Shown one piece after another: positions 4,020-55,454 of a stretch of 64,000 nucleotides of DNA. The stretch comes from Candidatus Magasanikbacteria bacterium RIFOXYB2_FULL_38_10. GTDB taxonomy: Bacteria > Patescibacteriota > Patescibacteriia > Magasanikbacterales > UBA10003. The stretch spans positions 30,119-94,118 of the forward strand of contig MFQT01000017.1 in NCBI GenBank assembly GCA_001783145.1. Reading direction: 5' to 3'. The notes below the pieces were generated by a model. It was given only the letters and a program-made list of their open reading frames with translations, was not told where the DNA came from and searched no databases. Position 1 is the stretch's first letter. Every line of letters begins with the position of its first letter. A program made the position numbers and the translations under genes.

Positions 4020-4045
4020 CCCTCCGTCAAATGCGGAGGGTTTTT
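4020..4045 (+). terminator. rho-independent terminator after murG
   Basis: Stem CCCTCCG (4020-4026) pairs with CGGAGGG (4034-4040) across a 7-nt loop, followed by TTTTT (4041-4045). Confidence 0.7.
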
Positions 4046-4234
4046 GTGGCTAAGATTAACAGGTACAAGGTTCGTTGCCACAACCTGGGCAAGGATCAAA
4101 CCTCATATTTTTATTTGTTTACAAGGGTTAACCCCTTTTTACCTCTATTATATTATAGCATTGTTGAGAAAGGACCGCAAGATAAGCGAAATAATTAAAA
4201 AACCCCACACAAATTTTAACAAGAGTCTTTTTTT

Positions 4235-4255
4235 TGGTGACCCGGCTGGGGATCG
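4235..4255 (-). repeat. 21-nt exact copy of the tRNA-Lys 3' end (acceptor/T-arm half including CCA); pseudo-tRNA or att-like scar
   Basis: tggtgacccggctggggatcg at 4235-4255 is identical to 4302-4322, in the same orientation. The sequence diverges immediately afterwards and cannot fold as a tRNA. Confidence 0.8.
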
Positions 4256-4301
4256 TGACCAAGCGTACCAGAGAAGCTGTGCAGCGCTTTTGTTTTTTAA
4301 A

Positions 4302-4377
4302 TGGTGACCCGGCTGGGGATCGAACCCAGGACCATCAGCTTAAAAGGCTGTTGCTCTACCAGCTGAGCTACCGGGCC
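4302..4377 (-). tRNA. tRNA-Lys (anticodon UUU), CCA encoded
   Basis: Minus-strand read GGCCCGGTAGCTCAGCTGGTAGAGCAACAGCCTTTTAAGCTGATGGTCCTGGGTTCGATCCCCAGCCGGGTCACCA folds as a 76-nt cloverleaf. Anticodon loop is CTTTTAA and the T-loop is TTCGATC. Confidence 0.9.
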
Positions 4378-4456: not shown

Positions 4457-4485
4457 TTGACAAAATCTGTCAAATGTGCTATGAT
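4457..4485 (+). promoter_or_regulatory. near-consensus sigma70-type promoter upstream of the GC-rich ORF
   Basis: TTGACA (4457-4462), a 17-nt spacer, then TATGAT (4480-4485) preceded by TGc (extended -10). The -35 box lies in the palindrome TTGACAaaatcTGTCAA (4457-4473). Confidence 0.6.
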
Positions 4486-4665
4486 ATGTAGTTAATTTGA
4501 TCTTTGATAATAGGGTGAAGGCTTTGTCCAACCAGATAAGTTTGGCTAAATTAAGGCAAAAATAAAGAAAATAAGATTAAATTTGTCCTAAATAAGCTTG
4601 ATTTATCCGGTTGGGCGAAGGTTTTCGCCCTCTCGAGGAAGGCTCCCCTTAAGGAGCTGTTTGGT

Positions 4666-4671
4666 AGGAGG
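4666..4671 (+). promoter_or_regulatory. Shine-Dalgarno site of the GC-rich ORF
   Basis: AGGAGG lies 5 nt upstream of the ATG at 4677. Native genes in this window lack such motifs. Confidence 0.7.
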
Positions 4672-4676
4672 TTCCT

Positions 4677-6155
4677 ATGGAACTCGTTCGTCAGTTCTTC
4701 GCGGCCCTGGTGTCCATGACGGACACGGCCATCGCGGCCGTGTTCCAGAGCCTGGAGCAGGAGAACGTGCTGACCAGCGCGCGTCTGCGCGCCGCGGTCA
4801 AGAAGAGCGAGGGTAACGAGTTCCGGCGCCTCAAGGTGGCTCTGGGCTATGCCGTGGACCACCAGCTCACCCTCTCCATCGCGAACATCCCGTTCATGAC
4901 GGACGAGGAGCTGGTGCTGGCGTTCCTGGAGGCCACGCCCGACCAGCGCGCCGAGTTCGTGGTGGCGCTGGACGAGATCACCGACGAGAGCGGTGTGCGC
5001 GGTCAGCAGGTGCTCTCCTCCGTGCAGGAGCGCCTCAACATCGAGAAGGCCGTGGCGCAACGCCAGGCCGAGGAGGAGCGTCTGGAGCGCGAGCTGGCCA
5101 AGAAGGCCGCCAGGCGCCTGGAGCTCCTGGAGCACACGGATCGCCTGATCCTGCACATCCTGCGGACCGGCGACGCCTGCGATATGACCGACGAATTGGC
5201 GGTCCAGTACATAGAGGATCAGCCCCTGGGCTACTTCAAGGTGCTCTCGGACATCGCCGGGCTCATCACCCCCGCCACCGCGGCGGAGGGCGAGGCGGCC
5301 CTGACCGGCCTGGACGCGCTGCGCGGCGGCACCATCGTGGACATGCTCACGGGCGCCACCCTGGCGGTGAAGGACGCGCGGAGCATCCGGGGTTGCTTCA
5401 TCACCGACGAGGAGGGCGCCAAGCGCCTCGTCAAGAAGCTCCCGAAGAAGGAGGGGGGAAGGGAGATCTACAGGCACCTGACGGGCGAGAGCCCCGAGGG
5501 TGTCCTGGAACGCCTGGACAGGCACGACGCGGAGTACGCGGCGCGCCAGAAGCGCGACGAGGCCTTCGTGGCCGAGGTGAAGAAGGCGATCGGCGAGGCC
5601 GACGCCACCTTCGTGGCCCTGGCCAAGGCGGTGGCCGAGCTGGTGGAGATCAACTCCGTCGGGACCAGCGGGCCCGAGGAGTGGAAGATGCGGATCATCC
5701 GCGACATCTCCGGCGAGTTCGGCGAGTTCCTGCGGCGGTCCTACATCGGCCAGTTGCGCCAGGCCTACCCCGACGCCTCGACGATCCCGGCGCTCAACGC
5801 CCGGATCGAGGAGGTCAAGGCGGCCTGGAACCAGGCGCGCGCGACGGGCGCCCCCTCCTACGAGCAGGATGCCATCCTCAAGGAGGTCCACGTCCTGGAG
5901 CGGCACCGGCAGTACCTGTCCGAGGCTCCCCAGCTCAAGCCGCAGCAGGGCAAGCCGACCGTCGGCACCCACGCCCACACCAAGGGCAAGGAGGGTGCCC
6001 CGGTCCTGACCGACCACTCCCGCGACGAGGACAGGGAGCGCAAGGAGCGCGAGCGGCGCGACGCCGACCGGAAGCGCACCCTGGACACCAAGGGCAAGGG
6101 CGGCGGCCAGCCCCAGCTCACGGGCAAGGGCAAGCACCAGAAGGGCAAGAAGTAG
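4677..6155 (+). CDS. orphan 492-aa protein on a high-GC island; helix-rich with a lysine/glycine/arginine-rich charged C-terminal tail; function unknown
   Basis: Long ORF with SD plus ATG. 36 of the first 40 codons end in G/C, a strong third-position bias that marks this frame as coding. No TM segment, signal peptide or catalytic motif recognised. Confidence 0.75.
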   Translation: MELVRQFFAALVSMTDTAIAAVFQSLEQENVLTSARLRAAVKKSEGNEFRRLKVALGYAVDHQLTLSIANIPFMTDEELVLAFLEATPDQRAEFVVALDEITDESGVRGQQVLSSVQERLNIEKAVAQRQAEEERLERELAKKAARRLELLEHTDRLILHILRTGDACDMTDELAVQYIEDQPLGYFKVLSDIAGLITPATAAEGEAALTGLDALRGGTIVDMLTGATLAVKDARSIRGCFITDEEGAKRLVKKLPKKEGGREIYRHLTGESPEGVLERLDRHDAEYAARQKRDEAFVAEVKKAIGEADATFVALAKAVAELVEINSVGTSGPEEWKMRIIRDISGEFGEFLRRSYIGQLRQAYPDASTIPALNARIEEVKAAWNQARATGAPSYEQDAILKEVHVLERHRQYLSEAPQLKPQQGKPTVGTHAHTKGKEGAPVLTDHSRDEDRERKERERRDADRKRTLDTKGKGGGQPQLTGKGKHQKGKK

Positions 6156-6285
6156 CCCAGCTACTTCGGCTCCTCAAGTGCCCCCAGTGTCCCTGGCAAC
6201 ATTAACAACGCGGCGGCCAACTAAATAACCGCCCACAACGTCACATGATCTTTCAACAGGTTACAGAGGGTCGCAACGATCCTTA

Positions 6286-6340
6286 CCGGCAATCAAAGTT
6301 CAGTGCTAACACACTGTTCCCACGATTGCCGGTTTTTTTT
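6286..6340 (+). terminator. rho-independent terminator closing the GC-rich cassette
   Basis: Outer stem CCGGCAATC (6286-6294) pairs with GATTGCCGG (6324-6332). Inner stem CAGTG (6301-6305) pairs with CACTG (6312-6316). Followed by T8 (6333-6340). Confidence 0.65.
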
Positions 6341-6365
6341 ATTTCTGCTAAAATGAAGTAAGGAT

Positions 6366-6440
6366 TTTAATAATAAATTTATCTTTTTTGCAGACGATGG
6401 CTTTAGTCCGCGGCGCAAAAAAGATAAATTTATTATTAAA
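6366..6440. repeat. perfect 26-bp inverted repeat with a 23-nt GC-richer loop
   Basis: 6366-6391 (tttaataataaatttatcttttttgc) is the exact reverse complement of 6415-6440. The loop is agacgatggctttagtccgcggc. Confidence 0.85.
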
Positions 6441-6450
6441 TAAAATCATT

Positions 6451-7029
6451 ATGCCCCTTAATCAAAAATATTTTAAAACCCTTAGTACTGTGTTTGCCGA
6501 TTGGGAAAAGTCCCGCCGCTCTGTTCAAGAAGCCTCGGCCAATGCTTTGCAAAAAGCCAAACAGGCTATTTTTTCTTTTCATCGCAATAATTGGAAAGAG
6601 GCCGAGGTTCTACTTAAAACCGCTTTGGAAAACATTAAAATCGCCGGCAAACTGCAAGAAAAAAGCATTGCCACAGATGATGAAGGAATTTTTAAATCAT
6701 CTTTAGAAGAATATGCCGAAGCTGAATTATTTCGTCAGTTTTTGTATAAAGAAACTATTGGTCCAATAAAAAATTTGGAAATTTCTCCGGAAACATATAT
6801 GGGTGGCCTAGCGGATTTGGTAGGGGAGATTCAGCGTTATGCTATGAAAATGGCCACGGAAAGAAATTTTAGCGAACTAACGCGCGCGGAAAAAGTGACC
6901 GAGGAAATTATGGGCGCAATTTTGTCTTTTAATTTTACCGGTTATCTGCGTACTAAATTTGATCAAGCCAAAGGCGCCCGTCGCAAAATAGAAGAGATCG
7001 CCTACGAAGTAAGTTTGCGTCAAAAATAA
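6451..7029 (+). CDS. translin/TRAX-family protein
   Basis: About 190 aa and all-helical. YMGGLADLVGEIQRYAM matches the translin/TRAX signature (G-x-ADLTGELMR). The ORF opens at 6388, inside the hairpin, and the ATG at 6451 is the likely start. Confidence 0.6.
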   Translation: MPLNQKYFKTLSTVFADWEKSRRSVQEASANALQKAKQAIFSFHRNNWKEAEVLLKTALENIKIAGKLQEKSIATDDEGIFKSSLEEYAEAELFRQFLYKETIGPIKNLEISPETYMGGLADLVGEIQRYAMKMATERNFSELTRAEKVTEEIMGAILSFNFTGYLRTKFDQAKGARRKIEEIAYEVSLRQK

Positions 7030-41506: not shown

Positions 41507-41974
41507 ATGGCTGATGAAGACAATTTAACTTATTTAACTCCGGAGGGTTTAGAAAAAATTAAATCTGAAATATCTTCCCTTAAAAATAAGCTTCACGAAG
41601 TGTCTGAGCATATAGAAAAAGCTAAAGAATTGGGTGATCTTTCAGAAAATGCAGAGTATCACGAAGCTAAAGACGATTTTGCCTTTACTCAAGGTAGAAT
41701 TCAAGAGTTGGAAGCAATAACTATGAGAGCACAAATTGTGCCAAAAAGCAGCCGGGACATGGTTAGCATTGGCTCCTCGGTTAAGATTAAAAGTGACAAG
41801 GGGCGCGAATCAGAATATTCTATTGTTGGTTCTAACGAAGCTGACCCTTTACGTGGAAAAATTTCTAATGAGTCACCCTTGGCTTTGGCTTTTTTAGGCA
41901 AAAAAAGAGGGGATAGGGTAGAAGTAAAAACTCCCACCGGTTCCACCGGTTATCAAATTTTAGAAATAAGTTAA
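41507..41974 (+). CDS. greA: transcription elongation factor GreA
   Basis: LTPEGLEKIKSEISSLK...GDLSENAEYHEAKD coiled-coil finger plus the C-terminal FKBP-like domain. Confidence 0.9.
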   Translation: MADEDNLTYLTPEGLEKIKSEISSLKNKLHEVSEHIEKAKELGDLSENAEYHEAKDDFAFTQGRIQELEAITMRAQIVPKSSRDMVSIGSSVKIKSDKGRESEYSIVGSNEADPLRGKISNESPLALAFLGKKRGDRVEVKTPTGSTGYQILEIS

Positions 41975-41988
41975 ATAAAATAATATTT

Positions 41989-42021
41989 AAAATAAGCTCC
42001 ATTAAATAGGGAGCTTATTTT
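41989..42021 (+). terminator. rho-independent terminator after greA
   Basis: AATAAGCTCC pairs with GGAGCTTATT around an ~8-nt loop, followed by a T-rich tail. Confidence 0.65.
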
Positions 42022-42128
42022 AAATATTTAATCTTTTAATTTGCTTGATCTTTATCTTAAAATGGGCTATAATCTTTAAAAGGCCGTTTGATAAATTTAA
42101 AACAAAAAACGGATATTATTATAATAAT

Positions 42129-54645: not shown

Positions 54646-55440
54646 ATGTCCTTAGTTTTTGCTGCCCTCTCCCCCCACCCTCCGCTTTTGATACCTACTA
54701 TTGGCAGAGAAAATTTAAATAAATTAGAAAAAACCAAACAAGCCTTAGAGGAATTGGAAAAAGCTCTATATATTTCCCAGCCTGATACTCTTGTTTTAAT
54801 TACCCCTCATGGAAAAATTTTTAAAGATTCATTTACTATCAATGCCAACCCGGAATTTAATTTTGATTTTAAAGAATTTGGAGATATTTCAACACAGGGT
54901 AATTTTAAAGCCGATTTGAATTTAATAGCCGATGTTTCTAATGCGGCTAAAAATCAAAATTTTCCCTTAATTTTGAATAGTGAACCCTCTCTTGATTACG
55001 GTTCGGCCGTACCTTTATATTACTTATCAAGACATCTTAATAGGTTAAAGGTTGTACCTATCAGTTATTCCTTACTTGAGCTTAAAAGACAAGTGGATTT
55101 TGGTTATTTTTTAAAAGAAGTTTTCATGAATTCTGCCAAACGTATTGCTGTTATTGCATCGGGCGATCTTTCCCACTGTTTATCCGATTCTGGTCCCGGG
55201 GGTTTTTCCCCGGCTGGGAAAAAATTTGATGATTTGGTTTTAGAAAGTTTAAAAAATAAAAATACTACAGGCTTGATGAATATTGAACAAACGATGAGTT
55301 CAGAGGCTCGCGAATGCGGTTTGCGTTCCCTATTAATACTTATGGGCGTACTAAGAAACGTTAATTATGATTTAAAAATTTATTCTTACGAAAGTCCTTT
55401 TGGCATAGGTCACCTAGTGGTTAATTTTTCTTTAGAATAA
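54646..55440 (+). CDS. LigB/Memo-superfamily protein (class III extradiol dioxygenase-like fold)
   Basis: ALSPHPP, SLDYGSAVPL and ASGDLSH motifs resemble LigB-family metal ligand regions. Confidence 0.45.
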   Translation: MSLVFAALSPHPPLLIPTIGRENLNKLEKTKQALEELEKALYISQPDTLVLITPHGKIFKDSFTINANPEFNFDFKEFGDISTQGNFKADLNLIADVSNAAKNQNFPLILNSEPSLDYGSAVPLYYLSRHLNRLKVVPISYSLLELKRQVDFGYFLKEVFMNSAKRIAVIASGDLSHCLSDSGPGGFSPAGKKFDDLVLESLKNKNTTGLMNIEQTMSSEARECGLRSLLILMGVLRNVNYDLKIYSYESPFGIGHLVVNFSLE

Positions 55441-55454
55441 ATTTTAAAATATCT

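Follow-up and report, generated by a model that had tools for sequence, protein, structure and literature searches.

Correia elements of Neisseria are present in a hundred or more copies and are characterised by the duplication of a TA target and by foreign terminal repeats of 26 bp. The 5′ stabiliser stem-loops of the ompA type are conserved, about 10 bp in length and experimentally defined. A stem-loop at the 5′ terminus protects an mRNA from 5′-end-dependent decay, and a duplex of at least 20 bp is a substrate of RNase III. Quasipalindrome template switching is known in E. coli. One template-switch event suffices to produce a perfect stem, as was shown by Monttinen & Loytynoja (2022, PMC8794818). 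In SPDIR, ectopic single strands of intra- or extragenomic origin are integrated as microindels of 3-100 bp (bioRxiv 10.1101/2023.11.22.568220).

A perfect inverted repeat with 26-nt arms is located upstream of the translin-family gene in a Rifle aquifer strain of Candidatus Magasanikbacteria. Similar to template-switch mutations (TSMs), it appears to be derived in one lineage, contains an exact reverse complement of adjacent sequence, looks like one clustered change, and forms a long perfect stem beyond the reach of point mutations. Unlike TSMs, it includes a non-local 23-nt filler and a 10-nt linker and lies in a bacterial 5′ leader, not in an rRNA or miRNA locus. With SPDIR it shares a short patch in the range of 3-100 bp, identical to an ectopic, possibly extragenomic donor and integrated in a replicating chromosome; however, the (extended) microhomologies of SPDIR are not evident here, the donor is deduced from one database match, and the attached inverted duplication is outside the SPDIR model. 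Correia elements and other foldback MITEs have in common with it the 26-bp terminal repeats, a length near 100 bp, a location between genes and beside gene starts and, if co-transcribed, an RNase III-cleavable hairpin RNA, whereas the present hairpin was found in a single copy, lacks a duplication and has one apparently native arm. The ompA-type stabilisers likewise have a stable stem-loop a few nucleotides from the transcript 5′ end, which is a predicted one here, but the present stem is 26 bp long and strain-specific. From the comparison of related lineages, the hairpin is rather probably a recent mutational product of one clonal lineage, a 59-nt insertion generated by template switching or ectopic templating, and no conserved element. 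The kind of event is already known, and the hairpin would be a further instance of it.

Structure and occurrence of the inverted repeat

The whole stretch of DNA that was analysed is 64 kb long and is referred to as the window. The locus order is mraY, ftsW, and murG, followed by tRNA-Lys, a GC-rich ORF, a terminator, the hairpin, translin, and genes for a GT2 glycosyltransferase and a Mur ligase. The features of the locus are as follows:

4302-4377, minus strand: tRNA-Lys gene
4457-4485: near-consensus sigma-70-type promoter of the GC-rich gene (promoter scan)
4677-6155: GC-rich ORF, 492 aa, ~69-70% GC, with a leader of ~190 nt before it and a structured 3′ UTR after it
6285-6340, plus strand: terminator of the upstream GC-rich gene, stem ACCGGCAATC/GATTGCCGGT, 29-nt loop with an inner hairpin, T8 at 6333-6340
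6326-6354, plus strand: predicted translin promoter (promoter scan), -35-like TTGCCG, 17-nt spacer, extended -10 TGcTAAAAT at 6346-6354
6366-6391, plus strand: left arm, TTTAATAATAAATTTATCTTTTTTGC, the exact reverse complement of 6415-6440
6392-6414, plus strand: loop, AGACGATGGCTTTAGTCCGCGGC, 23 nt, 61% GC, with ATG 6397 inside
6397-6450, plus strand: alternative in-frame start in the loop, adding the 18-aa extension MALVRGAKKINLLLNKII and giving a 210-aa form
6415-6440, plus strand: right arm, exact reverse-complement copy of the leader (26/26), probably derived
6441-6450, plus strand: linker of 10 nt, TAAAATCATT, between the hairpin and ATG 6451
6451-7029, plus strand: translin-family gene, 192 aa (Pfam PF01997, E = 8e-13), start MPLNQKY... 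as in relatives

The stem comprises 26 bp with no mismatches and has an A+T content of 88%. The preliminary description of this DNA had reported a mismatch-free 26-bp stem with a 23-nt loop, and both were found again at exactly the same coordinates. Its statement on base composition was right for the GC-rich loop (61% GC) and wrong for the arms, which are not AT-only since each contains three G/C. The spacing was also given correctly, the T-tract at 6333-6340 being separated from the left arm by 25 nt and the right arm from ATG 6451 by 10 nt, as was the inclusion in the structure of two upstream start codons, TTG 6388 and ATG 6397, both in frame with 6451.

With up to 3 mismatches allowed, the arm was detected at just these two sites of the 64-kb window, where none was expected from shuffles. 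The hairpin is the sole perfect inverted repeat of at least 16 nt in the window with arms up to 200 nt apart, and a 26-bp inverted repeat is far beyond chance. The predicted folding energy of the hairpin region was -32.9 kcal/mol (z = -5.8) for RNA and -24.7 kcal/mol (z = -8.1) for DNA. Two other inverted repeats of the window were considered as members of the same hairpin class and rejected. The second long one (55370-55450; 24 nt, 88%) is similar in appearance, with a 33-nt GC-richer loop and an end 4 nt before ATG 55455 of a small ORF, but its setting differs, since the C-terminal codons of the ORF before it (54646-55440, 264 aa) make up its left arm and loop. The repeat at 41968-42042 is imperfect and resembles a terminator.

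That the hairpin is an assembly artefact, a fold-back chimera, had been named earlier as a possibility and has a negligible probability. Assemblers do break at such a repeat: the ENA contig L002 has its start within the right arm, which would follow from a break made there by a de Bruijn assembler. However, five contigs that were assembled independently and come from four sources (Logan L001 and L011, NCBI L008, ENA L009, and JGI L010) contain the identical 75 bases, stem and 23-nt loop included. Over 3-17 kb, four of the five show 100% identity with the window, and L010 is identical across the hairpin region, running out of register only past window position ~13182. On record are 15 contigs with the 210-aa protein form, whose coding sequence includes the right arm and the 3′ part of the loop. 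In addition, a fold-back chimera would stay palindromic to the contig end, and here the palindrome extends over 26 nt with unique flanks on both sides. The occurrence of the same hairpin across contigs of several samples indicates that its carrier is one clonal strain.

Several known element types were compared with the hairpin. No T-tail was observed on either strand, the stem being followed by TAAAATCATT on the plus strand and by ATCCTTACTT on the minus strand, in agreement with the earlier remark that this is not a terminator. An intrinsic terminator was rejected in view of the AT-rich 26-bp stem, the 23-nt loop, the missing T-tail, the lack of a call in the terminator scan, and the conserved terminator upstream. 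An integron attC site was rejected as well: there is no GTTRRRY at the ends, the stem is perfect and without bulges, and the neighbours are mraY, ftsW, murG, translin, the GT2 glycosyltransferase and the Mur ligase. The proposals of a recombination target or a protein-binding operator found no backing, as neither a recombinase nor a regulator is encoded close by and core motifs are absent. The Rfam search returned sub-threshold matches to generic miRNA precursors alone (best 31.6 bits against gathering scores of at least 80).

Translin leaders of related lineages and origin of the 59-nt segment

The same terminator stem (ACCGGCAATC...GATTGCCGG) with a T-run was found in the related lineages L003, L004, L013, L014, and L016. 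In these five relatives, the terminator is followed within a few bases by TGnTAAAAT, then by an AT-rich leader of 25-37 nt and the translin ATG. All six lineages in which translin comes right after the terminator have TGnTAAAAT without variation, and TGNTAWAAT occurs in the window more often than expected (27 times vs 15.5 +/- 3.4). The TTGCCG element, similar to a -35 box, lies inside the descending arm of the terminator. In L005, where translin is displaced by a peptidase gene, TGnTAAAAT is absent after the terminator. On the basis of the promoter scan call, the conservation and enrichment of the motif, and its absence in L005, translin transcription is predicted to start near 6361 (~6360-6362). 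The displacing gene, M28-peptidase-like and on the minus strand, is situated between the terminator of the GC-rich gene and translin at 4184-5881 in L005 and at 2031-3578 in L006; the L005 translin promoter is different (TTGACC, 17-nt spacer, TATTAT), and a similar leader motif is kept.

The hairpin is absent at the orthologous site in all six relatives (L003, L004, L005, L013, L014, and L016). Their translin leaders are nearly unstructured (-0.6 to -8.2 kcal/mol) vs -32.8 kcal/mol for the 96-nt leader of the window. From the -10 box through the left arm, the window is collinear with the leaders of the relatives, and two alignments agree on this. The L016 leader GATTTTAATTATGATTTATCTATTTT matches the window segment GATTTTAATAATAAATTTATCTTTTTT at 22 of 27 positions, with a score of 32 that was reached by 0.4% of shuffles; no significant match of the L016 leader to the right arm was obtained. 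For the L004 leader, the score is slightly higher with the right arm (25) than with the left (21), an ambiguity caused by the self-complementary core ATAAATTTAT present in each arm. The polarity was therefore assigned mainly from L016, L003, and the orientation of T-runs: no relative has an A-rich segment at the position of the right arm, and in all of them the T-run is oriented as …TTTTTT, then ATG. Taken together, these points make the left arm the probable ancestral AT-rich translin leader, whose counterpart in relatives stops 0-3 nt short of the ATG, and the template of the copy. The derived material would then be the 59 nt at 6392-6450, i.e., the 23-nt loop, the 26-nt inverted copy, and the 10-nt linker; the linker itself may be either inserted material or remodelled ancestral sequence.

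A mutational origin through inverted duplication and template switching, which was not among the candidates of the preliminary description, appears to fit these comparative data best. The ancestor would have had the terminator, the extended -10 box (TGnTAAAAT), and a short unstructured AT-rich leader abutting the translin ATG. Between this leader and the ATG, 59 nt would have been gained, in the order 23-nt filler, 26-nt inverted leader copy, and 10 nt. For the inverted copy, a template switch during replication would have led the nascent strand to use the complementary strand or itself as template before returning. Template switching is suggested by an exact reverse complement of neighbouring sequence that appeared in a single step in one lineage. 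The state is derived, being absent in the six relatives, and the copy of the adjacent ancestral sequence is exact (26/26). A single local switch and return does not describe the locus, in which neither the loop nor the linker has a local template. Since a one-step switch leaves the 23-nt filler and the 10-nt linker unexplained, an event of several steps or several templates was assumed. Microhomology at the junctions amounts to 1 nt (G6415) on the right and 0 on the left; because it is nearly absent, the event was treated as SPDIR-like or as multi-template switching, and not as a proven member of either class. The arms have no mismatches although the nearest hairpin-free relative, L004, differs at 9.5% of translin nucleotides, which suggests that the duplication is young relative to the L004 split, or else that the arms were homogenised. 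The locus would be a clean natural example, with the ancestral states kept in relatives, of one replication error creating a long perfect RNA/DNA hairpin in a bacterial 5′ leader.

The insertion of a miniature foldback mobile element (MITE or Correia-like) before translin was also evaluated, and is very unlikely. The form would fit, with terminal inverted repeats of 26 bp around a short unrelated core, a size of 75 bp, and an intergenic location; the distribution would fit too, as the structure occurs in one lineage only and the same site is empty in relatives. On the other hand, no second copy of the arm was found with 3 mismatches allowed in the 64 kb, roughly a tenth of the strain genome. 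A 23-mer of the arm searched against 185,579 species genomes, the source genome not among them, gave one match, in the archaeon L007, and this was rejected as a repeat copy, being a lone AT-rich chance match without an inverted repeat. Viral contigs contained no match for the arm or the loop, and the blastn search of plasmids and phages yielded only weak, partial AT-rich matches of 25-35 nt (E 0.02-1). No target-site duplication was present, the flanks reading ...AAGGAT / element / TAAAAT.... Moreover, removal of the 75 bp does not restore the leader of the relatives, and the left arm itself aligns with the leaders of L016, L003, and L004. The suggestion of a MITE- or REP-like remnant is thus disfavoured by the lack of a further copy in the window and in the species genome, viral, plasmid, and phage collections, by the missing duplication, and by the native left arm. 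The further arm copies that were to be sought according to the preliminary description did not turn up in any of these.

Inverted repeats of smaller size were noted in two related translin leaders. In L003 (5973-6009), the 5′ end of the leader pairs with the start-codon region through a perfect 9-bp inverted repeat, AGTCATAAA / TTTATGACT (p = 0.002). In L014 (~1859-1876), the translin leader includes a perfect palindrome of 18 nt (9+9), TAATTTTAATTAAAATTA (p = 0.02). L013 was borderline, and nothing unusual was detected in L004, L016, and L005. These observations suggest that perfect inverted repeats may have arisen at least three times in the translin leader, at different positions in the window, L003, and L014. 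Such recurrence would suggest either that the site next to the strong terminator hairpin is a hot spot of template switching or that a hairpin in the leader was repeatedly selected for.

Under the template-switch explanation, the 23-nt filler needs a source of its own. Even with 3 mismatches allowed, the window offered no source for the loop; k-mers of length 11 and above do not recur there, the 10-mer count equals the shuffle expectation, and a counterpart of the loop is absent from all relatives. The scan of JGI metagenome contigs with a 20-mer of the loop returned one match, on L012, the strain's own locus not being among the matches returned. This match extends to 24 of 24 positions, i.e., the whole loop and G6415. 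The L012 contig has a GC content of 66%, and the match falls inside a gene for a DegT/DnrJ/EryC1 aminotransferase (Pfam E = 2e-103), in the conserved TPRTKAIV motif; the reverse complement of the loop reads PRTKAIV. The nearest named relative of the L012 gene belongs to a Solirubrobacteraceae bacterium. A gene with 93% identity to that of L012, on a contig of a sister sample, matches the loop and G6415 at 23 of 24 positions. No DegT-like motif is encoded in the 64-kb window. The expected number of chance matches was estimated by us, for this one database match, as E ~0.003-0.02, from ~0.5 random 20-mer matches in a few hundred Gb multiplied by ~0.5% for the four further bases.

From this similarity, descent of the loop from a DegT gene is probable, though not proven. 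The codons (CCG CGG ... GCC ATC GTC) are unlike those of a genome with 37% GC, which points to a high-GC organism, or to an unseen high-GC gene of the same genome, as the donor. A diverged copy of the translin start was considered as another source of the loop and rejected, ATGGCTTTA matching ATGGGCTTA of L016 at 7 of 9 positions; the 24/24 DegT match was preferred. The filler would probably have been templated by an ectopic strand carrying a DegT-family fragment of a high-GC organism, in an SPDIR-like or multi-switch event. Only tentatively can the loop be regarded as a fossil of extragenomic DNA, namely a fragment of a high-GC actinobacterial (Solirubrobacteraceae-like) DegT gene that was taken up and served as an ectopic template at the translin leader. 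If true, it would represent a natural, datable short-patch capture of foreign DNA by a CPR bacterium and a trace of whose DNA is scavenged. With a DegT origin, ~23 nt of foreign DNA would have been captured, which would bear on DNA uptake and mutagenesis in reduced CPR genomes.

The translin gene and the expected effects on its expression

In total, 98 translin homologues were found, and the translin identity of the six related lineages to the window ranges from 70 to 96%. Between the window and L004, 9.5% of the translin nucleotides are different, and the codon differences comprise 41 synonymous and 7 non-synonymous ones; judged by this pattern, the translin ORF is intact and under purifying selection. 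The protein cluster at 90% contains just the two start-codon variants of the strain and L004, so no intermediate state of the hairpin is present in the databases. The codons TTG 6388 and ATG 6397 are positioned 63 and 54 nt upstream of 6451, in frame and with no stop between. A Shine-Dalgarno motif was detected neither before ATG 6451 nor in the translin leader of any relative.

The public records annotate the 210-aa form (P0103; KKR49153.1, KKS57485.1, OGH85201.1), and the effect of the insertion could accordingly lie at the protein level: a 54-nt in-frame addition starting at ATG 6397 would produce a translin of 210 aa with an N-terminal extension of 18 residues, the hairpin being incidental. 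The frame is open from 6397 to 6451. The conserved leader motif of the relatives ends 0-3 nt before their start, and the first ATG after this motif in the window is 6397, 5 nt past the ancestral leader and thus at a distance comparable to that in relatives. This explanation is nevertheless unlikely. An open frame in phase over 18 AT-rich codons would be met by chance in about 1 of 10 cases (rough estimate), the hairpin whose loop contains ATG 6397 has a folding energy of -33 kcal/mol and is predicted to leave this codon partly paired, and all relatives start at the MPLN/MxxN position equivalent to 6451.

Under the template-switch explanation, the translin mRNA would begin ~5 nt before the 26-bp stem, with AUG 6451 located 10 nt past the stem and a second in-frame AUG in the loop; the stem is predicted to begin 12 nt after the conserved extended -10 box. 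The conserved leader motif would be sequestered in the stem. The stability of the mRNA should change, with the 5′-terminal stem-loop protecting it or RNase III cutting the duplex, and initiation should be hindered.

A selected element of the translin mRNA, whatever its mutational origin, would act as a 5′ stabiliser, an RNase III site, or a translational repressor and would be retained for tuning expression or for insulating the gene from read-through out of the upstream gene, which would be strongly expressed. With the conserved extended -10 box before it and the start codon after it, the hairpin should be transcribed, and its predicted fold is very stable. The carrier is abundant and clonal across several samples, with the translin ORF intact and under purifying selection, and the leader inverted repeats of L003 (p = 0.002) and L014 (p = 0.02) are compatible with recurrent selection. 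Even so, such a selected function seems unlikely. The hairpin belongs to a single clonal lineage, with no covariation or conservation to show selection; the inverted repeats of the relatives are elsewhere in the leader and much smaller, and the leaders of L004, L016, and L005 are unstructured. No Rfam family corresponds to the hairpin, and no signature motif of RNase III was found in the 64-kb window. An RNA processing or insulator element is the sole candidate of the preliminary description left standing, as a consequence of the mutation and not as a conserved function.

The upstream GC-rich gene and its surroundings

The GC-rich gene, or its GC-rich 3′ end on short contigs, is syntenic in L003, L004, L005/L006, L013, L014/L015, and L016/L017, and the proteins consist of 468-490 aa. 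The comparison of these sequences identifies the GC-rich segment as a native conserved gene and not a recent insertion. As the gene is present in every relative sampled, all without the hairpin, the hairpin is no border of an island. The island boundary of the earlier description is therefore not retained, the supposed island being native in six related lineages, none of which has the hairpin. The comparison with island-free relatives that had been suggested met none among the lineages sampled, and every island-bearing relative is without the hairpin. A false lead was thereby removed, as the hairpin would mark neither an island boundary nor a mobile element.

The GC3 of the GC-rich gene is 0.95 in the window, 0.99 in L003, and 0.78 in L005 and L014, vs ~0.35 for other genes. 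This bias holds across lineages with merely 39-41% identity in the GC-rich protein. No Pfam, PHROG, or PDB match was obtained for the protein, and the word-based protein search gave just two homologues. Conserved and specific to this gene, such an extreme bias towards GC at synonymous positions is a more striking feature of the locus than the hairpin. The gene locus occupies positions 4457-6340 in the window, 4140-5960 in L003, 2240-4110 in L005, and 300-1870 in L014. Its leader of ~190 nt contains a conserved hairpin (ggttgggcg...cgccc), the gene has a strong Shine-Dalgarno motif, and a conserved hairpin of the 3′ UTR, GGGTCGCAACGATCC, is found at 6268-6282.

The 3′ end of tRNA-Lys (TGGTGACCCGGCTGGGGATCG) forms a direct repeat of 21 nt, with copies at 4238-4258 and 4302-4322, the former 64 nt beyond the intact gene; one copy alone is present in L003. 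The repeat could be an att remnant of a lost integrated element or a decayed tRNA duplicate. Between murG and tRNA-Lys, a non-coding block (…caaggttcgttgccacaacctgggcaaggatcaaa…, a gggttaacccc hairpin, and a T-run) is conserved at 4031-4140 of the window, 3900-3990 of L003, and 1960-2020 of L005. No Rfam match at E <=1 was found for this block, which is a candidate small RNA.
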